From NCBI GenBank assembly GCA_022897995.1, contig GCA_022897995.1_4763.1: a DNA stretch of 64,000 bases; one strand, written 5' to 3'. Below are positions 13,322 to 55,566 of this stretch, piece after piece. The position numbers and the translations under genes are program-made. The notes under the pieces are model-generated. The model was not told the DNA's origin. It did not search any database and was given only the letters and a program-made list of their open reading frames with translations. This DNA is from a phage. The first letter of the stretch is position 1. Each line of letters starts with the position of its first letter.

Positions 13322-13350
13322 TTGACAACCATAAACGACTATAGCATAAT
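13322..13350 (+). promoter_or_regulatory. early sigma70-type promoter
   Basis: TTGACA, 17 bp spacer, CATAAT; followed by the conserved leader CATCGAAACGAAACAC and AGGAGAATCAAAATG. Confidence 0.6.
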
Positions 13351-13387
13351 GCACACATCGAAACGAAACACACTTAGGAGAATCAAA

Positions 13388-13765
13388 ATGATGATGATGT
13401 TTAAAGATAAATTCGAATGTCACTACACCCGTAACTTTGACTTAGTATCCCGCTACTACATTCATAAAGAAACTGGCACGCAAGTAGTTCTTGAATCTCA
13501 CAGCGAAGTAGGATTCGATTCAACAAAAGTAGCAATTAGTGCTCGCTTCTGGGATAACGGCAAATTTGCTTATGTTGCTTGGAACGACGACGAAAATGTA
13601 ATTACAGTAGCTTTCGGTGATGACTACTACACTAAAAAGACTTTCGATAGCAAGCCATCAAATGAATACCTGAAAGCGTATGTTCAGCACATGTTCCAAC
13701 GTGTTCTGACCGGAATGGAAATCAATGTCATGAAAGACATTGTAGACGAAGTAAAATATTCTTAA
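13388..13765 (+). CDS. hypothetical early protein
   Basis: ATG after the conserved Shine-Dalgarno; 125 aa. Confidence 0.6.
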   Translation: MMMMFKDKFECHYTRNFDLVSRYYIHKETGTQVVLESHSEVGFDSTKVAISARFWDNGKFAYVAWNDDENVITVAFGDDYYTKKTFDSKPSNEYLKAYVQHMFQRVLTGMEINVMKDIVDEVKYS

Positions 13766-13772
13766 AAAATAG

Positions 13773-13807
13773 TTGACAACATGAAACGGGGGTAGTAAGA
13801 TACCCCC
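13773..13807 (+). promoter_or_regulatory. early promoter with stem-loop (PeSL-type)
   Basis: TTGACA, 17 bp spacer, TAAGAT; inverted repeat gggggtagtaagataccccc encloses the -10. Confidence 0.6.
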
Positions 13808-13832
13808 ACAAACAGACGAAAGGAGAATCAAG

Positions 13833-13991
13833 ATGAAATTTATCGGTAAAACTTTTATGTTCGTAGCTGGTACTCTGTTTACTGCAACTCTGTTAGCTGG
13901 TGGCTTAGATATCTTTACTGCCTTTGAAACTTTCGGGTATACTGTAGCATCGGGTGCTCTCTTCGGATTGGGTTTAGCGATTAGCAAATAA
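13833..13991 (+). CDS. small hydrophobic membrane protein (52 aa)
   Basis: ATG after AGGAGAATCAAG; MKFIGKTFMFVAGTLFTATLLAGG...; below the ORF-track size cutoff. Confidence 0.5.
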   Translation: MKFIGKTFMFVAGTLFTATLLAGGLDIFTAFETFGYTVASGALFGLGLAISK

Positions 13992-14000
13992 GGTGATAAT

Positions 14001-14204
14001 ATGGAATTGGATATGGTTAAAGCAAAATTTATGGGTAAGGATAAGAAAGGTAAAACATTTGTTATTAATAGAACATTGTTTCGATCTGACCTTAAGTGGG
14101 TAACACAACAATTTGCGGAAGTCAACGAGGCGGTAGTGACCTGCTTTGTTGGTGATAAGAAAGTTTTTGAAATTGACCGTCGTGGGGTGTCTAATGATCG
14201 CTAA
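14001..14204 (+). CDS. hypothetical protein
   Basis: 67-aa ORF in the plus-strand early gene series. Confidence 0.45.
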   Translation: MELDMVKAKFMGKDKKGKTFVINRTLFRSDLKWVTQQFAEVNEAVVTCFVGDKKVFEIDRRGVSNDR

Positions 14205-14391
14205 ACTGTTTAGCAATACTTTGTTTCTGATTGCATTTGTTTTCTTTCTGTGTCTGATCATCGGTGTGATTGCAGTCGGTAGTTATTCCGGTATTACAAT
14301 AGATGATTTTTGTATGTTGGTTTTCTTTTCAAGTGTTCCTACACTCCTGATCGCTGTATGTGGTGCTTTTAGATGGATCTGTGATCTATGA
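14194..14391 (+). CDS. small membrane protein
   Basis: Hydrophobic ORF MIAKLFSNTLFLIAFVFFLCLIIGVIAV...; ATGA overlap with the next ORF. Confidence 0.45.
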   Translation: MIAKLFSNTLFLIAFVFFLCLIIGVIAVGSYSGITIDDFCMLVFFSSVPTLLIAVCGAFRWICDL

Positions 14392-14498
14392 CTGAACAGG
14401 AACGAATGATGTTGATAGGTGGACCGGAGTTCACTAAATTTGATGCAATTCTTATTGCGTTGGGGTTTCTTATGATCTGTTGTATGGTGGCGCTATGA
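14388..14498 (+). CDS. small membrane protein (36 aa)
   Basis: MTEQERMMLIGGPEFTKFDAILIALGFLMICCMVAL; translationally coupled. Confidence 0.35.
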   Translation: MTEQERMMLIGGPEFTKFDAILIALGFLMICCMVAL

Positions 14499-14719
14499 GT
14501 AGCATAAAATATTTTGCTTTCTTGTGTTTTATGATGTTCTTTACATTCCTTGCATGTGTTTTCTTTACATGGCTTGCTCATGTTGATAATGCAACCGGAC
14601 CGTTTTACTTCTTCTGTGTATTGTCTGTGTTGACTGGTGCTCTTGTTACGTGGATGATTCGAGATTGTTACGGAATGTATAAGTTTGAAAAGACTCGACC
14701 GAAATGGGGCAAACGATGA
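14495..14719 (+). CDS. small membrane protein
   Basis: Hydrophobic ORF; coupled start. Confidence 0.45.
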   Translation: MSSIKYFAFLCFMMFFTFLACVFFTWLAHVDNATGPFYFFCVLSVLTGALVTWMIRDCYGMYKFEKTRPKWGKR

Positions 14720-14898
14720 AATTATTTGCGTGGCTAATTATTTTAAATGTAATTATTAAGACTGTTCTCGCTGGTTTACTGATGATACATAGCACGGAAC
14801 CAGAAGAAGCATTAACGTATTGTGTTGCTTATGTGTTGGGATTCTTGCTTACTGCGTGGATGTGTGATGAATATCGAAGAATTGAGGTAAAACCATGA
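14716..14898 (+). CDS. small membrane protein
   Basis: Hydrophobic ORF MKLFAWLIILNVIIKTVLAGLLMI. Confidence 0.45.
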   Translation: MKLFAWLIILNVIIKTVLAGLLMIHSTEPEEALTYCVAYVLGFLLTAWMCDEYRRIEVKP

Positions 14899-15113
14899 AA
14901 ATGACCTTTTATATCTTAGCAAGTATCATGCTTGTGATCTCTTCTGCCTTATTTGCATTTCTTACCGTTTGGGGGATCTGCACTGACGCGAAACCGTGGG
15001 ATATAGTAGAAAATACGGTTATGTTTATTATCAGTGTCATGTGTCTTTTTGATGCATTTAACTCTATCAAGGAAGAAGATCAAAAACGTCGCGAGAGAAA
15101 GCGATATAAATAA
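14895..15113 (+). CDS. small membrane protein
   Basis: Hydrophobic N-terminus, basic C-terminus. Confidence 0.45.
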   Translation: MKMTFYILASIMLVISSALFAFLTVWGICTDAKPWDIVENTVMFIISVMCLFDAFNSIKEEDQKRRERKRYK

Positions 15114-15124
15114 TAGTGAACTAA

Positions 15125-15262
15125 AGACAGCGCGGTTAGAATGATTTGGACGTCACCTAGCCGCATTTATTACAGCGTATGGGGTGATCCGGTACGCTAA
15201 AGCATTCACTTGCTAGGCCGCTAGCAGGTTGGAGACAAGGAAGATTCGCTACCTTCCCTATA
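15125..15262 (+). ncRNA. candidate small structured RNA
   Basis: About 140 nt with no ORF, several local inverted repeats (gctaggccgctagc; ggaag...cttcc), ending at a terminator; no tRNA cloverleaf seen. Confidence 0.2.
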
Positions 15263-15292
15263 AGCCACTCTTCGGAGTGGCTTTTTTATTGC
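15263..15292 (+). terminator. rho-independent terminator
   Basis: gccactcttcggagtggc hairpin plus TTTTTTATT. Confidence 0.65.
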
Positions 15293-15313
15293 CTAAATTT
15301 TTTAAAAAAGTTG

Positions 15314-15342
15314 TTGACACCAGATCACGCCTATAGCATAAT
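15314..15342 (+). promoter_or_regulatory. early sigma70-type promoter
   Basis: TTGACA, 17 bp spacer, CATAAT; conserved leader CCATCGAAACGAAACAC. Confidence 0.6.
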
Positions 15343-15388
15343 ACACCCATCGAAACGAAACACACTTTCTAACTAGGAGAATCAAATT

Positions 15389-15574
15389 ATGGCACGTCGC
15401 ATCACTAAAGCACTGAAAGCAGTAAGCAAAGAAAACGTAGTAGCTATTCTGGTCATCTGGGGTTATAACGAAGAATCCGCTAAACAGAAAGTTGAAGCAG
15501 GGTTTGAACTGGCAGTAAAAGCAATGCCGAATGATGACTCTGTAGGACTGGCAAACTATATTGCATATTTCTGA
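15389..15574 (+). CDS. hypothetical early protein
   Basis: 61-aa ORF after AGGAGAATCAAATT. Confidence 0.5.
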   Translation: MARRITKALKAVSKENVVAILVIWGYNEESAKQKVEAGFELAVKAMPNDDSVGLANYIAYF

Positions 15575-15582
15575 TAAAAGTG

Positions 15583-15611
15583 TTGACAGGGGAGGATAAC
15601 TCCCCTACAAT
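15583..15611 (+). promoter_or_regulatory. early promoter with stem-loop (PeSL-type)
   Basis: TTGACA, spacer inverted repeat ggggaggataactcccc, TACAAT. Confidence 0.6.
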
Positions 15612-15640
15612 ATAACCATCAACGAAACGGGAGGACCAAA

Positions 15641-15862
15641 ATGATTAACTTTAAAGACGCAGCAAAAGAAATTATCGACTTTGAGCGTGAACTGTTTGAG
15701 ATGGAACCAAATATGAGTAAACTGGAATTGGCTAACCAGATCTGGTGCTCTAAGATGAATCCATCCGACCGCTTAGAAGTTATGAACATCGTCGGAGAAG
15801 TGAAAGGTAGTGCATTAATGAAACTCCGCGCTTGTCACGCTTACATCGCTGATCAACTATAA
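15641..15862 (+). CDS. hypothetical early protein
   Basis: 73-aa ORF after GGGAGGACCAAA. Confidence 0.5.
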   Translation: MINFKDAAKEIIDFERELFEMEPNMSKLELANQIWCSKMNPSDRLEVMNIVGEVKGSALMKLRACHAYIADQL

Positions 15863-15871
15863 GGGGGTAAT

Positions 15872-16066: not shown

Positions 16067-16088
16067 CGTTAAATGCTGAGGTGAGAAC

Positions 16089-16289: not shown

Positions 16290-16297
16290 AAAAGTTG

Positions 16298-16326
16298 TTG
16301 ACACACGAGAGGGTGTATAGCATAAT
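16298..16326 (+). promoter_or_regulatory. early sigma70-type promoter
   Basis: TTGACA, 17 bp spacer, CATAAT; leader CCATCGAAACGAG. Confidence 0.6.
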
Positions 16327-16360
16327 GCACCCATCGAAACGAGAAGATATGGGAGTCAAA

Positions 16361-16504
16361 ATGCCAATTTTTAAATTACAAGCAATGGGTTGTATTGTTG
16401 GTTTGTTCAAAACAAGAGAGAAGCTAAACAATGCCATTGATAAAATCCTTAAAGATAACCCAGATGCAAAGTCTTCTATACAGGTTTGGATTGTCTGGGA
16501 TTGA
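16361..16504 (+). CDS. small hypothetical protein (47 aa)
   Basis: ATG after GGGAGTCAAA; the track ORF 16232-16504 is an upstream extension through the promoter. Confidence 0.4.
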   Translation: MPIFKLQAMGCIVGLFKTREKLNNAIDKILKDNPDAKSSIQVWIVWD

Positions 16505-16606
16505 TACATTAAACTAGAAAATAGCACTTTTTGTTAAAACTTAATGAGGTGGCTAGAGTATAGTTACCTCATCGAAACGAAACACGAACTACTAAGGAGT
16601 ATCAAA

Positions 16607-16933: not shown

Positions 16934-16941
16934 GGTATATT

Positions 16942-17125: not shown

Positions 17126-17323
17126 ATGACGCTCAAGAGTATGTTTTTCAACTTCATAGGTGCTTCCATTCTTTCAATGCTATATCTTGTGACTGTATGG
17201 ATGGGCGACTATGAATTAACTAACGATGAAAATCTGACCGTGTTTACTGTCTTGACGATGATCATTTACACTGTCTTTCTTGTCTTGGATTTTATTGTGT
17301 TTCTTTACAAAACGGTGACTTGA
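17126..17323 (+). CDS. small membrane protein
   Basis: Hydrophobic 65-aa ORF. Confidence 0.4.
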   Translation: MTLKSMFFNFIGASILSMLYLVTVWMGDYELTNDENLTVFTVLTMIIYTVFLVLDFIVFLYKTVT

Positions 17324-17520
17324 TGACGATTAGGAAAAATGATATTGGTTTTGTTGCGGGTATCGCTAGCGTCTTTACTGTTGTTATTTTGCTAATGCTT
17401 TTACCCGGTGTATTCTCTGACCAGATTGAATTGTATGTAGCTTTTATCTGTTGCATTTATACTTGGCTTGCAATGTTTGTGATTAGTCTAATTATGCAAT
17501 TCGTCGTTAACAAATTTTAG
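17323..17520 (+). CDS. small membrane protein
   Basis: Hydrophobic ORF; coupled start. Confidence 0.4.
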   Translation: MTIRKNDIGFVAGIASVFTVVILLMLLPGVFSDQIELYVAFICCIYTWLAMFVISLIMQFVVNKF

Positions 17521-17541
17521 ATTTAATGTGAGGATTATATT

Positions 17542-18294: not shown

Positions 18295-18356
18295 TTAACA
18301 AAGCGGGTAGGGGTAATTTACTACCCGCATTAAATTAGCTCACTGGAGGGCTTTCT

Positions 18357-19160: not shown

Positions 19161-19550
19161 ATGTTTAAATTATCTCAAAGAAGCAAAGATCGGCTTGTTG
19201 GTGTACATCCAGACCTGGTAAAAGTCGTTCATCGTGCATTAGAACTGACTCCGGTCGATTTTGGTATTACGGAAGGTGTGCGTAGTCTCGCAACGCAAAA
19301 GAAATATGTTGCGGAAGGTAAATCTAAGACTATGAAATCTCGTCATCTTCATGGTTTCGCGGTTGACGTTGTAGCGTATCCGAAAGATAAGGATACATGG
19401 AACATGAAATATTACCGCATGATCGCTGATGCATTTAAACAAGCTGGTCGAGAATTGGGTGTTCCTGTTGAATGGGGCGGGGATTGGACCAGTTTCAAAG
19501 ATGGTCCTCATCTACAATTGCCTCACAGCAAATACCCAGATCCACAATAA
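19161..19550 (+). CDS. endolysin, L-alanyl-D-glutamate peptidase (M15 / T5-endolysin-like)
   Basis: Motifs SRHLHGFAVDV and EWGGDW...GPHLQL match the zinc peptidase M15 signature; sits where T4 has gene e. Confidence 0.75.
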   Translation: MFKLSQRSKDRLVGVHPDLVKVVHRALELTPVDFGITEGVRSLATQKKYVAEGKSKTMKSRHLHGFAVDVVAYPKDKDTWNMKYYRMIADAFKQAGRELGVPVEWGGDWTSFKDGPHLQLPHSKYPDPQ

Positions 19551-19611
19551 TTATTAACCATCAACGGGGAGACAATCTAAGGATCTCTCCCCGTTCACTG
19601 GAGACTTGACA

Positions 19612-20657: not shown

Positions 20658-20692
20658 CAAGCCAATCCGAAAAGGGTTGGCTTTTTCGTTTT
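20658..20692 (+). terminator. rho-independent terminator
   Basis: agccaatccgaaaagggttggct hairpin plus T-run. Confidence 0.55.
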
Positions 20693-20735
20693 ATGATGAT
20701 ATGATGCAATCTCTTAATCAACTGAGGGTTTAATT

Positions 20736-21892: not shown

Positions 21893-21921
21893 TTGACAGC
21901 ATGAAACGGGGGTAGTAATAT
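21893..21921 (+). promoter_or_regulatory. early promoter with stem-loop (PeSL-type)
   Basis: TTGACA, inverted repeat gggggtagtaatataccccc, TAATAT; near-identical to the element at 13773. Confidence 0.6.
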
Positions 21922-21949
21922 ACCCCCATCGAAACAAAGGAGTATTAAA

Positions 21950-22734: not shown

Positions 22735-22763
22735 TTGACTTTCTGGTGATAGGGCTATATTAT
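22735..22763 (+). promoter_or_regulatory. candidate sigma70-type promoter
   Basis: TTGACT, 17 bp spacer, TATTAT upstream of 22798. Confidence 0.35.
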
Positions 22764-22797
22764 GGAATCAGAAAGTTAAGCCAAACAGGAGAAATTA

Positions 22798-26284: not shown

Positions 26285-28429
26285 ATGCCAGAAGTAAAAG
26301 AAACTAGCATTAACACAACCATTTGGCTTCCTCATACTTTCGCGTGTTCAATTACTGCCGAATCGGAAGACCCATCTAAGACGAGGAAGGGTTATCATTG
26401 GAAAAAGGATGGTAAATTGGTCACTATGACCGATGCTCCGTCTTTTCCATTGAAGACAGTAAAGGAAGAGGACAAAACAGGCTGGTCTGTTAATGTTCGT
26501 GGGTATGCTCAAGATGACAATGAGTTTACTGGTGATTCTGTTGATATCGGTACGGAAAATTTCACCTTTGAATTGTTTGATAATCCATATGTAGAACATG
26601 TATACCCGCCACGGTCATTTATTGTTGGTGATGAAATAAAGGCAAAGATTGTTTTTCGTAGTCATATCCAGAATAATATTTCTGTAGACCTTTATTACAA
26701 CGATGGTTTGGTTGATTCCATTGATGGTGATCTAGGTTTAGACCATCGTGAATTTAAAATTGCAAAATTTGCGTGGCCTGAATTTTCCGGCACATATCGA
26801 ATGGAATTGAGCGATGAACATGATGATGTAAAATTTGTATATCCTTTCTTTGCTAGTATTGTCGAAAGTAAGGAAGTGTTTAACGTTCAAAAATACGCAC
26901 CTGCTTATTTTACCGTAGAAGATGATGCGCCGAATCAGGCCGAATATACTATTGTCCGCTACCGATTAGAGCGTGGTGATGGTACTTTGGTATATGAATC
27001 TAAAGATAAGACCTTGTATGTAACAAAACATGCTCAAGAGTCTGACGCCGGAGAATATGTTGCTTTTGTGCGTGCATATAAAGTTGTTAATGGTCCTGGG
27101 TCTGGTGAGCAATTCATCGATGGCGATAAACATCGCTTTACGGTAAATGTTAAGGAAAATGAGTTTTTCAGCCATGATTTTAGTGCTGTTGATTTTCGTT
27201 ATCCTTCTGGATCTACTGTAAACCTTGATATGCCAGTGATGCAAGCCGATAGCTCGTGGAACCGCCATTACGGTATGCTTAGTAACAACGTTTACTTTAC
27301 GTGGATGCTTGGCGGTAAGAAACTTCAAAGTAAAAAATATGGTGATGAAGGATACGACCGAATCACCCTATCTGGATTGCAATATGATAACAGCGTTGCG
27401 CTTCAATTGTTGGTTGCTCCTGCCAATCCAGCGGGTGAGCAGGTGATTCCTAACGGTCGTCCACTGTTTTATGACCGTCGTATGCTTGAGATTTATGATA
27501 AAGAGTATGATTATCGTAATATTGAAGTGGGTGAACCGATTGTTCTCAAGATCGTAGATCCTGAACCGCCAGCTAGTGATGATCCTGAACAAACACGAAC
27601 TTTGGTTATCACCAAAAACGACGTTAAAGTAACGGAACTACCGCTAGGCACTAAGGAATATAAGATCACTGACTCCGCTGACCGAGACCATAACGGAATC
27701 TGGGCGCATGAGTATCGTGATAGTCCGAGTAAAGATCCATTTAGTGCACATACCGATTTTGATATTGCTGGTCGCGCAACTTATCATGTTGAAGTTGTGC
27801 CAAATATGGAATTTGATGGTCCTCATCCGGTACAGGTGACGGAAGGGGATACGTTGACTATTGAAGCAACCATGCTTAAACCGCCAGCCTCATATGTTCC
27901 GACTTATGAGTTTAGCAAGAGTGGAGTTAAATTGCCAATTGCTGATGCAAGGACGCCGATTTATCGTAAGGCAAATGTTACCTTAGATGATGCTGGTGTT
28001 TATCGATTTGTTGCATTTGCTGATAAAAACAACAACGAAACTCTAGACCCAGGTGAGATCATCGGCTATACAAAATATGTTCAAGTTGTGGTTAATAAAC
28101 GTCCTGTTCGACCAGATGAACCTAAACCGGAAGTTAAAATTGTTACTCTGTTTAATGATTTTAGTAAAGGCCGATTTAGTCCGTGTCCGTATTGGGTAAT
28201 TGATGAACTTGTCGAACTGATGGAAGATCCGCATGGCTGGATGGGTAAACTTGAAGATGCTGTCTACTATGACTGGCAGATCACTATCTTTAATGAGTTC
28301 TTAAAAGGTAAAGATCTGTATCTTCAAGACTCCTGTAATGGTTATTGGGCTATTGTTCGTCAGAAAGACATGACAATCGAAACTGGTTACGGTCGATTTA
28401 AACACTATCACACAAATGGATTAGAGTAA
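26285..28429 (+). CDS. large multi-Ig-like-domain protein
   Basis: 714 aa with repeated Ig/I-set-like signatures (YHWKKDGK...EEDKTGWSVNV; ESDAGEYVAFV; TLDDAGVYRFVAF); distinct C-terminal domain. Confidence 0.6.
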   Translation: MPEVKETSINTTIWLPHTFACSITAESEDPSKTRKGYHWKKDGKLVTMTDAPSFPLKTVKEEDKTGWSVNVRGYAQDDNEFTGDSVDIGTENFTFELFDNPYVEHVYPPRSFIVGDEIKAKIVFRSHIQNNISVDLYYNDGLVDSIDGDLGLDHREFKIAKFAWPEFSGTYRMELSDEHDDVKFVYPFFASIVESKEVFNVQKYAPAYFTVEDDAPNQAEYTIVRYRLERGDGTLVYESKDKTLYVTKHAQESDAGEYVAFVRAYKVVNGPGSGEQFIDGDKHRFTVNVKENEFFSHDFSAVDFRYPSGSTVNLDMPVMQADSSWNRHYGMLSNNVYFTWMLGGKKLQSKKYGDEGYDRITLSGLQYDNSVALQLLVAPANPAGEQVIPNGRPLFYDRRMLEIYDKEYDYRNIEVGEPIVLKIVDPEPPASDDPEQTRTLVITKNDVKVTELPLGTKEYKITDSADRDHNGIWAHEYRDSPSKDPFSAHTDFDIAGRATYHVEVVPNMEFDGPHPVQVTEGDTLTIEATMLKPPASYVPTYEFSKSGVKLPIADARTPIYRKANVTLDDAGVYRFVAFADKNNNETLDPGEIIGYTKYVQVVVNKRPVRPDEPKPEVKIVTLFNDFSKGRFSPCPYWVIDELVELMEDPHGWMGKLEDAVYYDWQITIFNEFLKGKDLYLQDSCNGYWAIVRQKDMTIETGYGRFKHYHTNGLE

Positions 28430-28440
28430 AATGTAGTCAA

Positions 28441-28471
28441 AGCCATCCGAAAGGGTGGCTTTTTTATTTTT
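28441..28471 (+). terminator. rho-independent terminator
   Basis: agccatccgaaagggtggct hairpin plus TTTTTTATTTTT. Confidence 0.65.
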
Positions 28472-28476
28472 AGGTG

Positions 28477-28505
28477 TTGACAACCGGACCGTGGTATAGC
28501 ATAAT
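28477..28505 (+). promoter_or_regulatory. early sigma70-type promoter
   Basis: TTGACA, 17 bp spacer, CATAAT; leader CACATCGACAAC. Confidence 0.6.
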
Positions 28506-29718: not shown

Positions 29719-29747
29719 TTGACAGCGATCCGGTGTTATTGCATAAT
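29719..29747 (+). promoter_or_regulatory. early sigma70-type promoter
   Basis: TTGACA, 17 bp spacer, CATAAT; leader CCATCGAAACGAG. Confidence 0.6.
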
Positions 29748-29787
29748 ACACCCATCGAAACGAGATGCACTTTCTAGGAGAATCAAA

Positions 29788-30009
29788 ATGGCAACTGTTA
29801 AAATTATCAAATCTTCCGCTGGCTTCGGTTTCATGCGTGGCGCTAAGTACCCGATGATTATTGAAAACGTTGCCATCGAAGATGGTATGGCTAAAGTGAC
29901 CAGCCGTCAATTGTTCGAAGCTGGTGTTAAAACTGCCGAATCATGGGCGCTTCGCTATCCTAACAAAACTTGGTCCTTCTTCCTGAATGGTGAGGCTGAG
30001 ATCATTTAA
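29788..30009 (+). CDS. hypothetical early protein
   Basis: ATG after AGGAGAATCAAA; 73 aa. Confidence 0.5.
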   Translation: MATVKIIKSSAGFGFMRGAKYPMIIENVAIEDGMAKVTSRQLFEAGVKTAESWALRYPNKTWSFFLNGEAEII

Positions 30010-30012
30010 TTG

Positions 30013-30040
30013 TTGACACGGGGAGAGATCCCCGTATAAT
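30013..30040 (+). promoter_or_regulatory. early promoter with stem-loop (PeSL-type)
   Basis: TTGACA, inverted repeat cggggagagatccccg, TATAAT. Confidence 0.6.
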
Positions 30041-30070
30041 GATAGCCATACCAACTAAGGAGAATCAAAG

Positions 30071-30798: not shown

Positions 30799-31049
30799 TC
30801 ATCGGATACATCCCATATTCAACAACAAAACATATTGTCGGATTCGAAGACATAGAAAAGTCTTGCTTTCCTCTCAAGGTTGAAGTAGACTTTATTACAG
30901 CGAACGGATGGGCTTACGTCACTGTTTCAGAAATGAAGCGCGTAGGCTGGGAAAATTGCATACACCTACCGCATCTTATCCTAGATGTTCGCGCTGGTGA
31001 AATTGATATTGATGGAAAGATCTATGGAGACAATGTAAATGAAAATTGA
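30795..31049 (+). CDS. hypothetical protein
   Basis: 84-aa ORF, coupled. Confidence 0.4.
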   Translation: MIIGYIPYSTTKHIVGFEDIEKSCFPLKVEVDFITANGWAYVTVSEMKRVGWENCIHLPHLILDVRAGEIDIDGKIYGDNVNEN

Positions 31050-31296
31050 AATTATTGACCGTGCTGGGTATACTTTCATGGAAAAAGTTAAACTTCCTAT
31101 CATTGTTGAAGGTCGCCCCTTATGTCAAGGATTCATGATAACGACCAGAGAACTACGAAATGCTGGTGTTCCCGTTGAACCATGTTTCGGTGATGATTAT
31201 GAATGGTGTTTCAGTGGTTTTCGTGCACATAAAGCAAAAGAAGCACGAAAAGCATCATGGTTTGCTCGCTTTAATAACTGGTTGAGGAAACTGTGA
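31039..31296 (+). CDS. hypothetical protein
   Basis: 85-aa ORF. Confidence 0.4.
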   Translation: MKIEIIDRAGYTFMEKVKLPIIVEGRPLCQGFMITTRELRNAGVPVEPCFGDDYEWCFSGFRAHKAKEARKASWFARFNNWLRKL

Positions 31297-31871: not shown

Positions 31872-31900
31872 TTGACAGGGGATCAGTGATCCCCTATACT
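31872..31900 (+). promoter_or_regulatory. early promoter with stem-loop (PeSL-type)
   Basis: TTGACA, inverted repeat ggggatcagtgatcccc, TATACT; leader CACATCAAAACGAAACAC. Confidence 0.6.
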
Positions 31901-32545: not shown

Positions 32546-32575
32546 GTTGACATGAAAATGCGGTTATCCTATAAT
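32546..32575 (+). promoter_or_regulatory. early promoter with stem-loop (PeSL-type)
   Basis: TTGACA, inverted repeat gcggttatcctataataaccgc containing TATAAT. Confidence 0.55.
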
Positions 32576-32609
32576 AACCGCATCAAATGAACGATGTGAG
32601 GATTATATT

Positions 32610-35771: not shown

Positions 35772-35800
35772 TTGACAATAAGAAATGGGAGTAGTAAAAT
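35772..35800 (+). promoter_or_regulatory. early promoter with stem-loop (PeSL-type)
   Basis: TTGACA, inverted repeat gggagtagtaaaatactccc, TAAAAT. Confidence 0.6.
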
Positions 35801-35831
35801 ACTCCCATCTAATCAAGAAGGAGAATCAACA

Positions 35832-36682: not shown

Positions 36683-36711
36683 TTGACATGATGAAACGGG
36701 AGTAGTAAGAT
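36683..36711 (+). promoter_or_regulatory. early promoter with stem-loop (PeSL-type)
   Basis: TTGACA, inverted repeat gggagtagtaagatactccc, TAAGAT. Confidence 0.6.
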
Positions 36712-36742
36712 ACTCCCATCTAAACAACGAGAGGATTATATT

Positions 36743-37921
36743 ATGGCTAAATTCTTTGAAGGGCATTACTATGCATTCCGTGAAGGCGGTAAAGATGAGT
36801 TTCTAGACTTTTCTCGCTATTCAATTATTCTGACCGATGCTTCGCGCCGTGGTCATATTCGGGTTGCAGAAATTGTCAAAAACGGTTTTAAAGTATTAGA
36901 AAAAGATGACCACGGTCATGTTATTACTATTGAAGCTGGAGATGTAGTTTATTCCGCTAATGATATTGTGGATTATTGGGCTACTATGATTATGCACAAT
37001 GAGCGCAAATACTTTAAACGTATCTCAAAAGAGGCATACGAAGCGATGAACAAGAAAGAGGATGCAATGCCGACTTACTTTGAAAAAGGTAAATGTTATT
37101 CGTTTACCCCGGAAGGTTTGCAAGAATTTAAGCGATTCTGGGGAGATCATGATCCAGAGCACAAAGAAGCCATGAAACTTGTTGATTTTGTCGAATATGG
37201 CTTTTTAGTTGAAGAAGAATTTCACGGATCGGCTACCATGATCACCGCGAAAGGTGAAACTGTTAAGGCGGATCGTTTTTGTGAACAGTGGAATTGCTTG
37301 TTTGACGGTAGCGAATTTGAATACTTCGCAGAAATCACGAATCATCAATTTCGTTCTATGCAAGCAGATGGTCAGCGATTTAAAGTAGGCGAACGCTACA
37401 AGCCAAATCAGCATAATTTGCCTTATTGGTTTAACACTGAAACCGTATCCAGTCATGTTATTGAAATTGTTCAAAAGCTGGAACAGGGATTTAAGGTAAC
37501 TAAAGTAGATTCTTTCGGAAGTGTTGACGCGGTTGAAATTGATGGTGTAGAATATACACCGAAATCTTTCGGGCTTTGCTGGTATCACTTGATCAGCAAT
37601 GATGAACGTTATAACTTTGTTGAACTGCCATCTGAACCGGAAGAAGCACTAGAAGATCATGATCATCTGTCTGAACTGGTTAAACTGTTTGGCGATCTGC
37701 CGGATGGTGTAGGGGTGGCGGTAATGGGTGAAGGTGCTGTTATCCGAAACCTGAAAGACTTTAAAAAGTTCTTGATCGACATGCTGCCTAAACTCGATGA
37801 GAATCTAGATACAGATATTCAGAATCGCAAAGAAATTGTTAAAGAGACTGAAAAAGAGATCGAAGAGATTCGAGCAATTCGCCAGAAGGTGAAAGCAGTA
37901 AAGAAAAAAGTTAGTGCTTGA
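36743..37921 (+). CDS. paralog family protein (triplicated N-domain plus C-domain)
   Basis: 392 aa with three internal repeats (NGFKVLEK...ERKYFKRI; GFLVEE...; QGFKVTKV...IDGVEY...ERYNFV). Confidence 0.55.
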   Translation: MAKFFEGHYYAFREGGKDEFLDFSRYSIILTDASRRGHIRVAEIVKNGFKVLEKDDHGHVITIEAGDVVYSANDIVDYWATMIMHNERKYFKRISKEAYEAMNKKEDAMPTYFEKGKCYSFTPEGLQEFKRFWGDHDPEHKEAMKLVDFVEYGFLVEEEFHGSATMITAKGETVKADRFCEQWNCLFDGSEFEYFAEITNHQFRSMQADGQRFKVGERYKPNQHNLPYWFNTETVSSHVIEIVQKLEQGFKVTKVDSFGSVDAVEIDGVEYTPKSFGLCWYHLISNDERYNFVELPSEPEEALEDHDHLSELVKLFGDLPDGVGVAVMGEGAVIRNLKDFKKFLIDMLPKLDENLDTDIQNRKEIVKETEKEIEEIRAIRQKVKAVKKKVSA

Positions 37922-37945
37922 CATGCGAAGGGAGTATGCTATAAT
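37918..37945 (+). promoter_or_regulatory. early promoter with stem-loop (PeSL-type)
   Basis: TTGACA, inverted repeat gggagtatgctataatactccc containing TATAAT; -35 overlaps the stop of 36743. Confidence 0.6.
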
Positions 37946-37975
37946 ACTCCCACTTAACAACGAGAGGATTATATT

Positions 37976-40381: not shown

Positions 40382-40415
40382 CAGCCGATCCGAAAGGGTC
40401 GGCTTTTTCGTTTTT
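40382..40415 (+). terminator. rho-independent terminator
   Basis: cagccgatccgaaagggtcggctg-type hairpin plus TTTTTCGTTTTT. Confidence 0.65.
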
Positions 40416-40420
40416 AGGTG

Positions 40421-40448
40421 TTGACAACCTGATTAGCTCATGTATAAT
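40421..40448 (+). promoter_or_regulatory. early sigma70-type promoter
   Basis: TTGACA, 16 bp spacer, TATAAT. Confidence 0.6.
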
Positions 40449-41563: not shown

Positions 41564-41592
41564 TTGACGGGGATCGCGAGATCCCCTATACT
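41564..41592 (+). promoter_or_regulatory. early promoter with stem-loop (PeSL-type)
   Basis: TTGACG, inverted repeat ggggatcgcgagatcccc, TATACT. Confidence 0.55.
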
Positions 41593-47604: not shown

Positions 47605-47616
47605 TGGCTTTATAAG

Positions 47617-47650
47617 GGAGACTCCGAAAGGGGTTTCCCTTTTTATTTTT
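47617..47650 (+). terminator. rho-independent terminator
   Basis: gggagactccgaaaggggtttccc hairpin (GAAA loop) plus TTTTTATTTTT. Confidence 0.55.
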
Positions 47651-47694
47651 CTATGATATAGTGAGAACATCTAAAACGAAGAGAGGAAGAGACT

Positions 47695-48720: not shown

Positions 48721-48749
48721 TTGACGCGGGGAGAAATCCCCGTTATACT
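48721..48749 (+). promoter_or_regulatory. early promoter with stem-loop (PeSL-type)
   Basis: TTGACG, inverted repeat cggggagaaatccccg, TATACT. Confidence 0.55.
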
Positions 48750-50147: not shown

Positions 50148-51810
50148 AACCTTGCGCTATCAAAATATAATGAGCGTGGGTGCTGAACCTGTTGAGATTC
50201 AGCTAGACGGATTCAAAAAGACACTAATCACTGGTGTTAACGGTGCTGGTAAATCGACCATGATCGAGGCGCTTTGCTTTGTGTTGTTCGGTAAACCGTT
50301 TCGTAGTATCAAGAAAGGCCAATTGATTAACAGCGTCAACAAAAAGAAACTGTTAGTCGAAGTCTGGTTTGAACTGGACGGGAAAGAGTTTTATATCAAA
50401 CGTGGTCAAAAACCGGAAGTATTCGAAGTGCATCGCGACGGTCAAAAGATCGACGAGAGCGCAAGCACCAAAGACTTTCAGGAATATTTTGAAGGTATCA
50501 TAGGCATGAACCTAGCCAGCTTTAAACAGATCGTTGTTTTAGGCACTGCTGGTTATGTTCCGTTTATGAGTCTTCCGGCAGCGGGTCGCCGTAAACTGGT
50601 TGAGGATTTGCTTGATATTGCTACGCTGGGCGAAATGGATAAACTGAATAAAGCGTATGTGCGCGAGATTACCCAGAATATCCAAATGCAGGAAATGAAA
50701 GCTAATCACGTTCAGCAACAAATCAACACTCATAAAAAGTATATAGAAGACGCTAGCAAGGCGAGTGCCGAGAATCTCCAGCGTTTACAGAATATGTATG
50801 ATAAAGAGGTAGAATCGGCTAAAGCATTTAAAGCCGAAGAAACGCGCTTGACCGATGAGCTATTGGCTGTTGTTATGCCGGAAGATCCTAGTGCGGCATT
50901 GGCTAAAATTAATACGGCTATCGCACAGATTGGTGCGCAGATCCAGAACTTTGACCGTGTTATTCATATGCATGAGAAAGGCGGGGTCTGTCCTACGTGC
51001 ACACAACCGATCATTCAAGGTAATGATCAAGCTGTACGCGAACAAAAAGCACAAGCAGAACATAAACTGTCTCTTATTGACGAGAAACGCGTAGAATACG
51101 CAGAGAAAGCCAATTCTTTCCAGACAGCACAAACTAAGGTCTTGGAAATTAAACGCGCTATAGAGTCACAGAGAGCGAATTTAACGGCATCTGTAGGTCG
51201 TGCTAAACAGATCCAGAAAGCAATTCAGGAATTGCAAAAAGAAAGGGTTGACAATTCCGAAGAACTTGCTAAACTGGAACACGAACTGGTAGAGATTACT
51301 AATGAAAAATCAAAGCTAGTTCTTGAAAAATATCATCGTGGATTTGTAACAGAAATGTTGAAGGATTCCGGTGTTAAGGCGTCTATCGTCAAGAAATATA
51401 TTCCATATTTCAATGATCGGATTGCGTATTATCTTGATATCATGGAAGCGGATTATATCTTTACGCTAGATGAAGAGTTTAACGAAACAATCAAATCACG
51501 GGGGCGTGAATCGTTTTCGTATACATCATTCAGTCAAGGCGAAAAGGCACGTATTGACCTTGCGATGCTCTTTACATGGCGTGATGTTGCTGGTAAAGTA
51601 TCTGGTACTAATATTTCTTTGTTGGTACTCGACGAAATTTATGATGGGGCTACGGACGTTCAAGGCGTCAAAGCACTTGATTCCATCATTGACAAGTTAG
51701 ATGATAACGTGTATATTATCAGCCATCGTGACCATAACCCTGATGATTTTAGCCGTCATCTCAAGATGGTTAAACGTGGGCGATTCACTGAAATGAATGT
51801 TAACATTTGA
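50128..51810 (+). CDS. 46: recombination endonuclease subunit gp46 (Rad50/SbcC-like ATPase)
   Basis: LITGVNGAGKSTMIEALCFVLFGKPFR Walker A; CPTC zinc hook; LVLDEIYDG Walker B. Confidence 0.9.
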   Translation: MAKLNFKTLRYQNIMSVGAEPVEIQLDGFKKTLITGVNGAGKSTMIEALCFVLFGKPFRSIKKGQLINSVNKKKLLVEVWFELDGKEFYIKRGQKPEVFEVHRDGQKIDESASTKDFQEYFEGIIGMNLASFKQIVVLGTAGYVPFMSLPAAGRRKLVEDLLDIATLGEMDKLNKAYVREITQNIQMQEMKANHVQQQINTHKKYIEDASKASAENLQRLQNMYDKEVESAKAFKAEETRLTDELLAVVMPEDPSAALAKINTAIAQIGAQIQNFDRVIHMHEKGGVCPTCTQPIIQGNDQAVREQKAQAEHKLSLIDEKRVEYAEKANSFQTAQTKVLEIKRAIESQRANLTASVGRAKQIQKAIQELQKERVDNSEELAKLEHELVEITNEKSKLVLEKYHRGFVTEMLKDSGVKASIVKKYIPYFNDRIAYYLDIMEADYIFTLDEEFNETIKSRGRESFSYTSFSQGEKARIDLAMLFTWRDVAGKVSGTNISLLVLDEIYDGATDVQGVKALDSIIDKLDDNVYIISHRDHNPDDFSRHLKMVKRGRFTEMNVNI

Positions 51811-52027
51811 CAGAGTAACACAGCCGGAGTTAGAATTGTATACCTTAATCAATCTATATTCCGGTGAAGAATATGTAGTTAGTATGGGGGATATGAAAAA
51901 CAGCATATACAGCGATGCAGACATAACAAAAATGTTGTCTTGTCGTCATCATGAGTTTATGCTGGTCCCCAACTTTGATAAACTTGATTACCCTGATGCT
52001 GGGGTTGCAACAAACTTTAGAACGTGA
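51797..52027 (+). CDS. hypothetical protein
   Basis: 76-aa ORF between genes 46 and 45. Confidence 0.35.
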   Translation: MLTFDRVTQPELELYTLINLYSGEEYVVSMGDMKNSIYSDADITKMLSCRHHEFMLVPNFDKLDYPDAGVATNFRT

Positions 52028-52435: not shown

Positions 52436-52439
52436 TAGA

Positions 52440-52817: not shown

Positions 52818-52847
52818 TTAATTGATTAACATGATAAAGGTGATTTG

Positions 52848-53534
52848 ATGAAACTGACTAAAGAAACCATTGCTACCCTGAAAAACTTTTCCGCTATTAA
52901 CCCAGGTATCATCCTGAAAAAAGGAAACGTCCTGATCACCAAAAACATGACAAACGTTGTATATGGTGAAGCGACTCTGAATCAAGAACTGGAACACGAA
53001 ATCGGGATCTATGATCTTAACTCTTTCCTGGGCATTCTGAATCTGGTAGGCGATGAAGCAGATATTACGGTTGATGACCGCACTGGTAACATTCGTGTGT
53101 CTAACGACCGTCTGAAAATTAATTATCCTGGTGCTAGTGCTGCTGCTATCGTATCACCGAAAGGCCGAGTTACTCCACCTGCAAGCGATGTAGATTACGA
53201 ACTGAGCAACGACGATCTGAAACAGCTTATGAAAATGAGCAATCAGCTTAAAGTGGATCGCCTTGAATTTCTTCCGATTGATGGTCGTCTGATGATCAAA
53301 GGTTGGGAAGAGATTGACAAAAATAATCCTAATGAGATGTTTTGTCTTGATATGGGCGAATATACCGGAACCGCAGACTTCCATTTCTTTATTCGTAAAG
53401 ATAACATGAAACTGGTTGCTACTGACTTCGGCGATTACAAACTTAGCTTCACTCGCCGTAAGGCTGTATGGCTGGCAAGTGAAACCGTATCTTATATGAT
53501 CGCGTGTGACCTTGACTCCAGCTACACCGACTAA
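52848..53534 (+). CDS. 45: sliding clamp gp45
   Basis: MKLTKETIATLKNFSAINPGI...IGIYDLNSFLGILNLV matches T4 gp45. Confidence 0.9.
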   Translation: MKLTKETIATLKNFSAINPGIILKKGNVLITKNMTNVVYGEATLNQELEHEIGIYDLNSFLGILNLVGDEADITVDDRTGNIRVSNDRLKINYPGASAAAIVSPKGRVTPPASDVDYELSNDDLKQLMKMSNQLKVDRLEFLPIDGRLMIKGWEEIDKNNPNEMFCLDMGEYTGTADFHFFIRKDNMKLVATDFGDYKLSFTRRKAVWLASETVSYMIACDLDSSYTD

Positions 53535-53536
53535 TA

Positions 53537-53570
53537 TAATGTTTGTGGGGAGTGTAAATACTCCCCGTTT
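53537..53570 (+). terminator. stem-loop/terminator after gene 45
   Basis: ggggagtgtaaatactcccc hairpin then GTTTTA. Confidence 0.4.
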
Positions 53571-53599
53571 TAATGATGTAATTTGTGAGAGGTGATTAT

Positions 53600-54574
53600 A
53601 TGCTGAGTGTTAATGAAAATGAGTTTCAGTGGGAACAGAAATACCGTCCGAAATCAATTTCTGAATGTATTCTGCCGGAAGCAGATAAAAAGATCTTCGC
53701 GCAGATTGTTAAACAAGGCCGAATCCCTTCTATGATCCTGCATAGCCCATCGCCTGGTACTGGTAAAACAACCGTTGCTAAGGCGCTTTGCGAAGATGTG
53801 GGTGTTGATTATCTGTTTGTTAACGGCGCAGATTGTAAGATTGATTTTATCCGCGATGAGATTACACGCTTTGCGCAGAGTGTATCACTCGATGAAGAAA
53901 AACGAGAAAAAGGCAAAGTTGTTATTATCGATGAGTATGACCGAGCGGGGCTAGCTGATGCTCAAAGACACTTGCGTAGTTTCTCTGAGGCATACTCAAA
54001 CAACGTGACATTCATTATCACAGCAAACGATCTAGAAGGTATTATCCCAGCGTTACGATCTCGATTTGATCCCATCACGTTTGGATCTCCGACCAAAGAT
54101 GATCAGCTTCGCATGATGAAAGAAATGATCGTCCGGTGTAAAGCAATTCTTGATAAAGAAGGTGTGCCAGTAGAAGAAATGCGCGTATTAGCGGAATTGG
54201 TTAAGCAGAACTTCCCAGACTTCCGGCGCGTAATGAAACTTTTGGACCGCTACGCTAAACATGGTAAAATTGATGCTGGCGTATTGAGCATGGTTATCGA
54301 AAGTAGCAATACCGAAGTAACCGATGTGGTGGAAGCACTTAAAACTAAACAGTTTGCTAATGTGCGTAAACTTGCACCGCGATATACCAATACATACGCT
54401 CAATTTGTCAAGAAACTTTATAATGAGTTGTATACTCAAGTTAAGCCAGCTTCTATTATTCGTCTCACTGAGATTATCGGTGAAAATAATCAGATGTTTG
54501 CGCACGCGGCTGATAAAGAGATTCACATTGTCTTTTTGTTAATGCAATTAATGGTTGAATTGGAGTTCGTATAA
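53600..54574 (+). CDS. 44: clamp loader large subunit gp44
   Basis: EQKYRP...ILHSPSPGTGKTTVAKALC...VVIIDEYDR...NFPDFRR matches T4 gp44. Confidence 0.9.
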   Translation: MLSVNENEFQWEQKYRPKSISECILPEADKKIFAQIVKQGRIPSMILHSPSPGTGKTTVAKALCEDVGVDYLFVNGADCKIDFIRDEITRFAQSVSLDEEKREKGKVVIIDEYDRAGLADAQRHLRSFSEAYSNNVTFIITANDLEGIIPALRSRFDPITFGSPTKDDQLRMMKEMIVRCKAILDKEGVPVEEMRVLAELVKQNFPDFRRVMKLLDRYAKHGKIDAGVLSMVIESSNTEVTDVVEALKTKQFANVRKLAPRYTNTYAQFVKKLYNELYTQVKPASIIRLTEIIGENNQMFAHAADKEIHIVFLLMQLMVELEFV

Positions 54575-55152
54575 TGTTAGGTCAATTTTTCGGTGAAGAT
54601 GATACACAATTAAACGAGCATGAAATTGCATGGCGCTCTCGTGATTGGGAAAAGGTGTCTGAATTAGCTGACACATTCACCGAGAAAACCGACAATGCAT
54701 TATTTGCTCTGATGGATCATATCACCTTAGATAAACAGCGCGTTAATGTGGGAAACAATTCTGCATATAACCAGAGATGGATTAACACCGCTCTTTCCCA
54801 GCACGCAGATTGCCTATATAGCGCGTATGTGATGAATTTAATCGGTCATGGCCTCCCAGATCAAATGCATTTTGATTATCTCTTACAGAGTATTTCTAAG
54901 GGGAAACGATACGGTAAATGGGCTAAACTAACAGAAGAATTGGACCAAAAATTGGTTTTAATGGCAGTGGCGAAAGCATATTGTGTAAATATGGATGACG
55001 CCCGGTTTTATCTCGATTTGGCTAATGAAAAGGGATATATGGACAAGTTATTGAAGCACATTAAACCGTATGCGACCGATGAACTTTTGGCGGGTGTTAC
55101 TAAGAATCAGACAGAAAGGAAACGACTTAAAAAGATTATAGAAAGGTGGTAA
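54574..55152 (+). CDS. 62: clamp loader small subunit gp62
   Basis: TQLNEHEIAW...MNLIGHGL...KGKRYGKWAKL matches T4 gp62. Confidence 0.85.
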   Translation: MLGQFFGEDDTQLNEHEIAWRSRDWEKVSELADTFTEKTDNALFALMDHITLDKQRVNVGNNSAYNQRWINTALSQHADCLYSAYVMNLIGHGLPDQMHFDYLLQSISKGKRYGKWAKLTEELDQKLVLMAVAKAYCVNMDDARFYLDLANEKGYMDKLLKHIKPYATDELLAGVTKNQTERKRLKKIIERW

Positions 55153-55153
55153 A

Positions 55154-55516
55154 ATGATTGAAATTAATTTGATTAGTCCTGAAAACTTCCTTAAAATTAA
55201 GGAGACTTTAACCCGCTGCGGCATTGCCAACAATCGAGACAAGACACTGTATCAGTCTTGTCATATTCTCCAGAAGAAGGGGCGCTATTACATCGTTCAT
55301 TTCAAGGAGTTGTTGAAATTAGATGGTCGTAGTGTTAAAATGACGTGGGAAGATGAATTACGCCGTAATAACATTGCAAAACTTCTTGCGCAGTGGAATC
55401 TGTGTACCCTGATTGATAGTGATTTTGAAACTACCGAAGTTAATAATTTCCGTGTACTGTCTTTCAAACAGAAAGAAGAGTGGACGCTGATCGAGAAATA
55501 TCAGATCGGACGCTAA
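55154..55516 (+). CDS. regA: translational repressor RegA
   Basis: MIEINL...KETLTRCGIANN.DKTLYQSCHILQKKG.YYIVHFKE...NNFRVLSFKQKEEW matches T4 RegA. Confidence 0.9.
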   Translation: MIEINLISPENFLKIKETLTRCGIANNRDKTLYQSCHILQKKGRYYIVHFKELLKLDGRSVKMTWEDELRRNNIAKLLAQWNLCTLIDSDFETTEVNNFRVLSFKQKEEWTLIEKYQIGR

Positions 55517-55537
55517 GATACTGATGGGATAGGGGTA

Positions 55538-55566
55538 TTGACAAACTAGGTCGATTCCCCTATAAT
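55538..55566 (+). promoter_or_regulatory. sigma70-type promoter upstream of gene 43
   Basis: TTGACA, 17 bp spacer, TATAAT. Confidence 0.55.

Follow-up and report, generated by a model that had tools for sequence, protein, structure and literature searches.

Promoter-early stem-loops in the early region of a Krischvirus genome: conserved promoter–hairpin units with an occasional part in gene-content change

Promoter-early stem-loops (PeSLs) were described in the phages RB49 and phi1 by Arbiol, Comeau, Kutateladze, Adamia & Krisch (2010, Genome Biol Evol 2:140; PMC2839356). There are 51–52 per genome, mainly in hyperplastic regions 5′ of ORFans, and they form five subclasses by the position of the stem-loop, which is stable, often polyG...polyC, and lies upstream of, overlapping, between or downstream of the −35 and −10 hexamers. 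In lacZ fusions, high expression (~13,000 Miller units) was obtained from one wild-type class-B clone, PeSL206/205, other clones picked up −35/−10 mutations, and one class-B stem-loop placed alone before lacZ reduced expression as much as the rrnB T1 terminator did (PMC2839356). The same authors proposed that recombination between PeSLs shuffles cassettes of a promoter and an open reading frame (ORF) via mini-circles; they observed circles whose junctions were at PeSLs, in one case with the crossover within the loop, and raised the idea of a protein that binds GGGG...CCCC. The idea was later extended to the phage pairs T4/PST and KVP40/nt-1, which carry the stem-loop 5′ of the promoter (Comeau, Arbiol & Krisch 2014, PMC4122927). 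Here, we analyzed a 64,000-nt stretch of phage DNA (contig GCA_022897995.1_4763.1 of GenBank assembly GCA_022897995.1; below, the window), for which an original prediction made from the letters alone had claimed about 20 early promoters between positions 13322 and 55566. From their sequences these units can be identified as PeSLs of the RB49 type, hence as elements already known, and their value lies in a check on the 2010 model with dozens of Krischvirus genomes, compared with two in 2010.

The window belongs to a Krischvirus (an RB49-like T4-type coliphage) and shares 94–97% nucleotide identity and synteny with RB49, phi1, JSE and GEC-3S. Megablast searches with three large pieces of the window returned at least 59 GenBank phage records from this single genus (RB49, phi1, JSE, GEC-3S, ECD7 and others), all syntenic and 92–97% identical, and no identical phage record. 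The + strand of the window corresponds to the minus strand of most Krischvirus records. Its GC content is ~40%, the GC skew is positive from ~10 kb on, in line with a long block of + strand genes, and minus-strand genes are absent from the region of the promoter units. Following synteny, the gene model was restricted to the + strand past 9.9 kb and spurious minus-strand ORFs were dropped; its start positions are wrong for two ORFs, 16325 (true start 16361) and 51836. Site variability was measured in a window-anchored alignment of 11 relatives of ~50 kb each (12 genomes with the window), and breakpoints were compared with 11 relatives over the full ~50 kb region and 15 over the 13–38 kb half (16 genomes with the window). 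All comparison genomes were GenBank records, as IMG/VR scans anchored on tk and nrdD gave two Krischvirus contigs only (one being ECD7); more distant IMG/VR loci served for the survey of hairpin classes only.

Reading every intergenic gap yielded a catalogue of 26 sigma-70-type promoter units, all on the + strand between 13322 and 59408, with 25 of them inside the interval for which about 20 had been claimed. Eighteen of the 19 promoters annotated by the depositors of GEC-3S coincide exactly with catalogue units, and the 19th sits in a cassette missing from the window. The strict motif TTGACA-N15-19-TATAAT was found six times against 0.15 expected. When up to two mismatches were allowed, the + strand contained 57 matches and the minus strand eight (10.7 ± 3.3 expected per strand), an excess of about five-fold confined to the coding strand, and 29 of the 57 fell in the 14% of positions directly 5′ of gene starts. 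Within the catalogue, six units match the motif perfectly, 23 of 26 have no more than two mismatches in 12 positions, and the spacers measure 16–18 nt. The 30 nt 5′ of the −35 hexamer are richer in A+T (67.7%) than the window average (59.9%), with the consensus aAAAtattTTaAaAAAgTtG. All units but one are intergenic, with a strong Shine-Dalgarno (SD) sequence and a start codon 25–59 nt past the −10. The ORFan-rich 13–38 kb half holds 18 of the 26. The expectation that a small novel ORF follows each unit was broadly right, with ~18 of 26 preceding hypothetical ORFs of at most 178 aa; the others precede nrdC.11, vs.1, frd.2, gp47, gp44, gp43 or (doubtfully) gp45.2. An additional 28 promoter-like sites with up to two mismatches, lacking hairpins, lie inside + strand genes between 13000 and 63000 of the window, where ~9 were expected, and the minus strand has no such excess.

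Beyond the hexamers, many units share the sequence ACaC.CATCgAAAC 3′ of the −10 and a short semi-conserved leader, often ATCGAAACGAAACAC. In 25 units (for example, at 13351–13390 and 36712–36745) two families of leader and ribosome-binding site can be distinguished: 17 carry AGGAGAATCAAAATG with GGAG, and most others carry GAGAGGATTATATTATG. GGAG is the motif cut by the RegB endoribonuclease of phage T4, and the two families may correspond to two kinetic or stability classes of early mRNA. The units had been called near-identical, which overstates their likeness: over 120 nt the ungapped identity between them has a median of 35% and a maximum of 60%, and the longest exact common tract is 23 nt.

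Hairpins were called with a simple stem finder and with folding z-scores against dinucleotide shuffles. A stem-loop is present in 23–24 of the 26 units, which we divided into classes A (six), B (five), C (10–11) and D (two). In class A the hairpin is a canonical terminator upstream of the promoter: a GC stem closed by a GAAA or TTCG loop is followed by 8 nt of which 6–7 are T, and this terminator ends ~16 nt 5′ of the −35 or overlaps it. In class B, a stem of 7–8 bp exactly fills the spacer from the last −35 bases to the first −10 base, spanning −23 to −5/−6 relative to the end of the −10. In class C (10 units and a wide-loop variant at 22735) the −10 hexamer itself lies in the loop, and in seven of the 10 units the 3′ arm ends 6 nt past the −10, that is, one base before the expected start. 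Class D hairpins begin 3′ of the −10, and two promoters, 51807 (doubtful, inside gp45.2) and 55538, are hairpin-less. A hairpin of 6 bp or more, including three or more GC pairs, lies between the −35 and +30 in 16 of the 26 units, whereas shuffles preserving the hexamers and base composition give 1.8; such a hairpin occurs in 16% of random 60-mers (p = 2e-7 against this background). For 15 of the 17 embedded hairpins z was −2.9 or lower against dinucleotide shuffles. Thus, the claim that most units are embedded in GC-rich stem-loops stands (15–17 of 26), but a canonical stem and U-tract precedes only six of 26 units, so that a terminator is not their usual neighbor. The three sequences offered as examples of a spacer inverted repeat are all present (ggggatcagtgatcccc at 31878–31894, cggggagagatccccg at 30019–30034, gggagtagtaagatactccc at 36698–36717), although the third is no spacer repeat, since its loop holds the −10 TAAGAT. 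An Rfam scan of the whole window gave no matches, and no known RNA family overlaps the hairpins.

These units show every feature by which PeSLs can be recognized in sequence: a promoter, an A/T-rich upstream region, a stem-loop, and an SD sequence with a mostly small ORF, in a host phage of the RB49/phi1 type. This agrees with the original prediction, which had named PeSLs of RB49-like phages. Most of them lie at positions conserved in RB49 and phi1, and with the same genus, genomic positions and parts the window represents another strain, with nothing categorically different. We identified the PeSLs assayed in 2010 from the phi1 genome sequence, and all three (5′ of ORF191/193, ORF205 and ORF210) are class B; unit 31872 is a near-identical paralogue of the phi1 unit 5′ of ORF210, whose stem-loop was the one assayed as a terminator. 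What our analysis adds to the PeSL picture is the frequencies of the classes, apparent purifying selection on the stems, the restriction of the published assays to class B, and a link to breakpoints no stronger than that of other gene junctions.

The early and middle promoter–stem-loops of T4/PST and KVP40/nt-1 are similar in joining a promoter to a stem-loop in hyperplastic regions and in being proposed as shuffling linkers (PMC4122927). They differ in having the stem-loop just upstream, as in the class A layout, in their consensus (TTTACW or TTGYVH) and in their A/T-richer stems; embedding of the hairpin in the promoter, as in classes B and C, is typical of the RB49 group. A class C layout was also seen in a T-even-type phage group among the distant loci (L007–L009; tk 56–58% identical; −35 TTTACA), whose early promoters place the −10 hexamer in a loop closed by a 9-bp stem (L007:1400, L007:7620 and L007:12704, also L008 and L009). 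Their stems are unrelated, e.g. GGTGTAGGA..TATAGT..TCCTACACC, and the recurrence of this layout with another −35 hints that the design itself is selected, not just inherited. Class A hairpins resemble the Rho-independent terminators of E. coli and T4 in their GC-rich stem, GNRA-like loop (GAAA, TTCG), 6–7 U of 8 and sense-strand folding. Classes B and C do not: the B hairpin is followed only by the −10 (2–4 U in the next 8 nt) and the C hairpin by a sequence of the AUCGAAAC type (0–2 U in nine of 10 units), and both fall short of the U-tract of an intrinsic terminator (at least ~5 U in 8). Lambdoid morons and integron cassettes, a comparison made by Arbiol et al. (PMC2839356), are likewise small accessory ORFs with their own promoter and terminator that are gained or lost as units. 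PeSL units, however, have no integrase or attC-type site, their ORFs are co-oriented with the flanking genes, and their exchange, where seen, uses short shared tracts and the general recombination system.

Comparison of the 12 aligned genomes revealed a marked gradient of variability. Variable sites account for 0.8% of the −35, 4% of the −10 and 6.2% of the stems, compared with 29% of the loops, 17% of other spacer and flanking positions and 12% region-wide (stems versus loops and flanks, p = 1e-7). On this measure the promoters and stems are clearly more strongly conserved than coding sequence and would be functional, and the stems appear to be under purifying selection. At the same time, stem sequences vary between units with pairing kept (GGGGATC, ACGGGGA, GGGAGTA, GCGGTTAT, ATGCGGTTAT, GCGGGTAG) around loops of 3–12 nt, and this favors a nucleic-acid structure over a protein operator. 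In all six class A units the hairpin folds better on the + strand, as expected for terminators. For embedded stems, G·T (G·U) pairs outnumber A·C pairs 8:2 among orthologous substitutions and 9:2 (p = 0.03) when mismatches were counted symmetrically for both strands in 46 distinct embedded hairpins of all loci, a suggestive but not decisive sign, based on few wobble pairs, that selection acts on sense-strand RNA. An earlier strand-asymmetry test, in which the + strand was more stable in 17 of 23 cases (p = 0.003), was discarded as a biased artefact of a stem definition that used the + strand and allowed G·T pairs. The suggestion that the hairpins might act on the opposite strand finds no footing here, as the region has no minus-strand genes and the wobble pairs favor the sense strand.

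In this 47-kb region PeSLs behave as stable landmarks and not as frequent breakpoints, and most gene-content change is caused by homing endonucleases and intragenic indels. Chaining of BLAST alignments between the window and its relatives, with every indel and replacement listed, gave ~22 distinct types of structural-variant junction, two of which are PeSL-bounded. Four genomes added for the 13–38 kb half brought almost no new junctions, so the event set seems saturated. The first PeSL-bounded variant is a 228-bp cassette (16343–16570) found in the window and in Skers only and missing from 14 of 15 relatives. An 11-nt direct repeat, CATCGAAACGA, lies directly 3′ of each hairpin bounding it, and the relatives have a single chimeric PeSL, which fits well the published shuffling model, with 11-nt microhomology as the site of exchange. 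The second is at 30009–30047, where nine of 15 relatives have a ~910-bp cassette (terminator–gp38–terminator–promoter) in place of the window's 37-bp class B core; this replacement begins and ends at PeSL edges, with no common crossover tract. The gp38 tail-fibre adhesin cassette is present in RB49, phi1, JSE, GEC-3S and five others and absent from the window, G2248, Skers, KMB43, MIZ4, G37-3 and kvi, which points to a different receptor-recognition module in the window and those six relatives.

Nine junction types involve homing endonucleases (19511, two genes at 20696–20723, 34973, 39384, 47694, 60761, the insert in gene 43 of the window and its remnant in JSE), and the remaining ones are intragenic indels or recombination between paralogues. 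At 20696–20723, just 3′ of unit 20659–20705, six relatives have an insert of either 525 or 598 bp, the two sizes holding different homing-endonuclease genes, and in RB49, JK32 and MIZ4 an HNH gene is inserted 15 bp from unit 47614–47662. Breakpoints fall within five of the 26 PeSLs and 12 of the 77 other gene junctions (odds ratio 1.3, p = 0.44); for the hyperplastic half and its 15 relatives the figures are four of 18 and 10 of 51 (p = 0.53). Recombination discordance was measured by correlating the pairwise-distance matrices of the 400-bp segments on either side of a site. The correlation was low everywhere (median ~0.17), meaning that mosaicism is pervasive, and PeSLs did not stand out by a further drop relative to other junctions (p = 0.26) or random positions (p = 0.15); the hyperplastic half showed only a trend in this direction (p = 0.07). 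In all 11 full-length relatives 21 of the 26 PeSLs are kept with at most four differences in 29 nt. The original prediction had itself counted elements that persist in relatives without an adjacent gene-content break as evidence against a boundary role, and 21 of the 26 are of this kind; the role it proposed as cassette boundaries is carried by two variants out of ~22, a weak basis given the lack of enrichment. PeSL shuffling here is real but occasional, not dominant in gene-content variation and, with power limited to one region and 16 genomes, not detectably above the intergenic background. The examples published earlier are in the second hyperplastic region.

Several of the other variants concern individual genes. 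Gene 43 (DNA polymerase) is split in the window into an exonuclease-domain ORF (55599–56807) and a polymerase-domain ORF (58054–59391) by a 1.1-kb insert carrying a 286-aa ORF (56914–57774). Relatives annotate this ORF as an HNH/NUMOD3 endonuclease; it had no Pfam match, and the Rfam scan of the window found no group I intron that would explain the split. The gene is uninterrupted in eight of the 11 full-length relatives, and JSE has a remnant of the insert with a 644-bp deletion. Only the window, G2248, JK32 and Brandy have an intact copy of a 714-aa ORFan (26285–28429) that lacks Pfam domains; a 1.96-kb internal deletion (26428–28391) is common to eleven other relatives and phi1 has a different one (26373–28222), so this gene is decaying through internal deletion and not through cassette excision. 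Tandem paralogous small ORFs at 17126–17520 and 31039–31296 vary in copy number among the relatives by recombination between copies (junctions 17129–17526 and 31039–31211).

The observations are in our opinion best explained if each unit joins a sigma-70 early promoter to a stem-loop acting on read-through RNA and if units occasionally recombine with one another, and we regard this explanation as likely. By the rules for sigma-70 promoters, unmodified host RNA polymerase holoenzyme would fire at these units at once after infection and start ~7 nt past the −10. For class C this is the first base after the 3′ arm of the hairpin, and the unit's own transcript would therefore not contain it. RNA reading through from an upstream unit would contain the hairpin and would be terminated, attenuated or stabilized at its 3′ end, insulating tandem promoter–ORF units so that their expression would not be additive. 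Since the units share short tracts (11–23 nt), the very active phage recombination system could occasionally cross over between them and delete or insert a promoter–ORF cassette, the clear example being 16343–16570 with its crossover in CATCGAAACGA. Such crossovers contribute little to gene-content change here next to homing-endonuclease traffic and intragenic indels. The parts of this explanation differ in strength. The sequence-level evidence for the promoters is strong and is joined by one lacZ assay on a class-B paralogue; termination by class A hairpins is textbook behavior; attenuation by class B has the published stem-loop reporter assay behind it (PMC2839356); and attenuation by class C, with its short count of U residues, is something we only infer.

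Several points weigh against this explanation. Without a proper U-tract in classes B and C, canonical intrinsic termination is not expected for the commonest class, and the strict registration of hairpin and promoter in these two classes would not be needed by a mere terminator. The embedded stems are perfect Watson-Crick palindromes, and their folding energy shows no strand asymmetry (7 vs 10, p = 0.41, in fixed windows), so the interpretation at the RNA level depends on the small number of wobble pairs described above. The literature searched contained no assay of a class-C hairpin, and no maps of transcription starts or termination for any Krischvirus were found in the searchable literature. 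Finally, the shuffling role is not enriched over background. Class C units could conceivably be not terminators but a distinct device coupling promoter use to nucleic-acid structure, for example by promoter opening that depends on supercoiling or single-stranded DNA, or as a U-tract-independent element for the 3′ end or stability of the upstream message; we think this rather unlikely.

A related explanation, to which we give a similarly small chance, is that the stem-loops embedded in class B and C promoters do not act as RNA but adjust the promoter in which they lie. With a GC-rich paired spacer, or with a GC-rich discriminator and the −10 in a potential cruciform loop, opening would depend on supercoiling or on the state of the polymerase, and early transcription would thereby be timed or limited. 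The strict positional coupling would suit such tuning, with class B filling the spacer and class C 3′ arms at +6 in seven of 10 units, just before the expected start, as would the perfect palindromes without strand bias in folding energy and the recurrence of the −10-in-loop layout with TTTACA and unrelated stems in L007–L009. However, an effect of GC content or of the discriminator needs no complementarity, and yet pairing is kept across different stems; G·T is tolerated far more than A·C, which points to a single sense strand and not to duplex or cruciform DNA; and a class-B stem-loop without its promoter cut lacZ expression to the rrnB T1 level (PMC2839356). These same palindromes, together with the circular products joined at PeSLs with one crossover in a loop (PMC2839356) and the two variants with both ends at PeSLs, could also be read as DNA-level recombination signals, in which a hairpin or cruciform is recognized by an endonuclease VII-like nuclease or another protein, making PeSLs hotspots that drive shuffling and mini-circle formation. 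We consider this decidedly less probable, as breakpoints are not enriched at PeSLs in either comparison, phylogenetic switches are no sharper there, the single clean crossover maps not to the hairpin but to the leader repeat CATCGAAACGA, and 21 of 26 elements are kept in all relatives examined.

Protein recognition of another kind would be expected if the inverted repeats were operators for a dimeric phage or host repressor that shuts off the early promoters. The palindromes do overlap either the spacer or the −10, where operators classically lie, and several units have a GGGG...CCCC core in common. Against this, half-sites (GGGGATC, ACGGGGA, GGGAGTA, ATGCGGTTAT, GCGGGTAG) and loop lengths vary widely, the register to the −10 differs by class, complementarity is the only common feature, and the loops are the most variable sites. 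In place of the conserved half-site and fixed spacing expected of an operator we found neither, and this highly improbable explanation was rejected. Chance was rejected as well, on the statistics of motif, hairpin and conservation. On this view, A/T-rich intergenic DNA would abound in promoter-like hexamers and short hairpins, and a scan with a loose consensus indeed gave 87 sites for 55 expected. The strict and two-mismatch motifs, however, exceed expectation 5- to 40-fold on one strand only, hairpins exceed shuffles nine-fold, the −35, −10 and stems are more constrained than coding sequence, and other laboratories annotated the same sites independently, which leaves the chance explanation a practically negligible probability.

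The individual units, all on the + strand, are as follows. In class A, unit 13285–13350 consists of a terminator at 13285–13305 (ACCCCGAAA/TTTCGGGGT followed by a T-tract) and TTGACA-17-CATAAT at 13322–13350, with both promoter and terminator annotated in GEC-3S. Three others match GEC-3S promoters: 15264–15342 (terminator 15264–15281; TTGACA-17-CATAAT at 15314–15342), 28439–28505 (terminator 28439–28462; TTGACA-17-CATAAT at 28477–28505) and 40383–40448 (terminator 40383–40404 after nrdD; TTGACA-16-TATAAT at 40421–40448). Two class A-like units have a terminator overlapping the −35: at 20659–20705 the terminator (20659–20683) covers a weak −35, TTGGCT, followed by TATGAT, and at 47614–47662, 5′ of gp47, a strong terminator (47614–47641) covers a poor −35, followed by TATAGT.

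The class B units are 15583–15611 (TTGACA ggggaggataactcccc TACAAT, with the hairpin at 15588–15606 filling the spacer; z = −4.1), 31872–31900 (TTGACA ggggatcagtgatcccc TATACT; z = −2.9), 41564–41592 (TTGACG gggatcgcgagatcccc TATACT; z = −3.2) and 48721–48749 (TTGACG cggggagaaatccccgt TATACT; z = −3.1), which all match GEC-3S promoters, and 30013–30040 (TTGACA cggggagagatccccg TATAAT), a strict match to the motif.

Class C units that match GEC-3S promoters include 13773–13807 (TTGACA-17-TAAGAT; hairpin 13788–13807, GGGGGTA/TACCCCC, with the −10 in the loop; z = −3.8), 21893–21927 (TTGACA-17-TAATAT; hairpin 21908–21927; z = −3.2), 32547–32583 (TTGACA-17-TATAAT; 10-bp hairpin 32558–32583, ATGCGGTTAT/ATAACCGCAT; z = −4.9), 35772–35808 (TTGACA-17-TAAAAT; hairpin 35785–35808, ATGGGAGTA/TACTCCCAT; z = −4.8) and 37918–37951 (TTGACA-16-TATAAT; hairpin 37930–37951, GGGAGTAT/ATACTCCC; z = −4.4). 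The same holds for 29719–29752 (TTGACA-17-CATAAT), with a weak 5-bp stem, GGTGT/ACACC (z = −1.65), and for the wide-loop variant 22735–22777 (TTGACT-17-TATTAT), in which the stem CTTTCTG...CAGAAAG surrounds the −10 (z = −2.8). Another GEC-3S match, 16298–16332 (TTGACA-17-CATAAT; hairpin 16311–16332; z = −4.6), forms the left edge of the 228-bp cassette. Flanked by the direct repeat CATCGAAACGA, this cassette contains a 47-aa ORFan (16361–16504) and a degenerate second PeSL, 16531–16572 (TTGTTA-17-TAGAGT; 12-bp hairpin 16544–16572; z = −3.9), which forms its right edge. Class C also includes a weak unit at 18295–18328 (TTAACA-16-TTTACT; hairpin 18303–18328, GCGGGTAG/CTACCCGC; z = −4.6), whose loop is hypervariable among the relatives, and 36683–36717, 5′ of frd.2 (TTGACA-17-TAAGAT; hairpin 36698–36717, GGGAGTA/TACTCCC, which is the gggagtagtaagatactccc example; z = −3.5).

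In class D, unit 53512–53568 (TTGACT-17-TATAAT), 5′ of gp44, has a hairpin at 53545–53568 that GEC-3S annotates as a terminator, and unit 59381–59436 (TTGACA-16-TATAAT), outside the interval 13322–55566, has a 12-bp hairpin at 59408–59436 (z = −5.3) and matches a GEC-3S promoter. Of the two hairpin-less promoters, 55538–55566 is a consensus TTGACA-17-TATAAT 5′ of gene 43 that matches a GEC-3S promoter and has no significant hairpin (z = +0.2), and 51807–51836 (TTGACA-18-TAGAAT; z = +1.5) is doubtful, lying inside the start of the gp45.2 gene. Finally, a GC-rich stem-loop without a promoter (ACGGGGAGA...TCTCCCCGT, with a 13-nt loop and no U-tract) was found at 19564–19594 after the endolysin gene, adjoining an HNH insertion site (19511–19535) that is used in five relatives.

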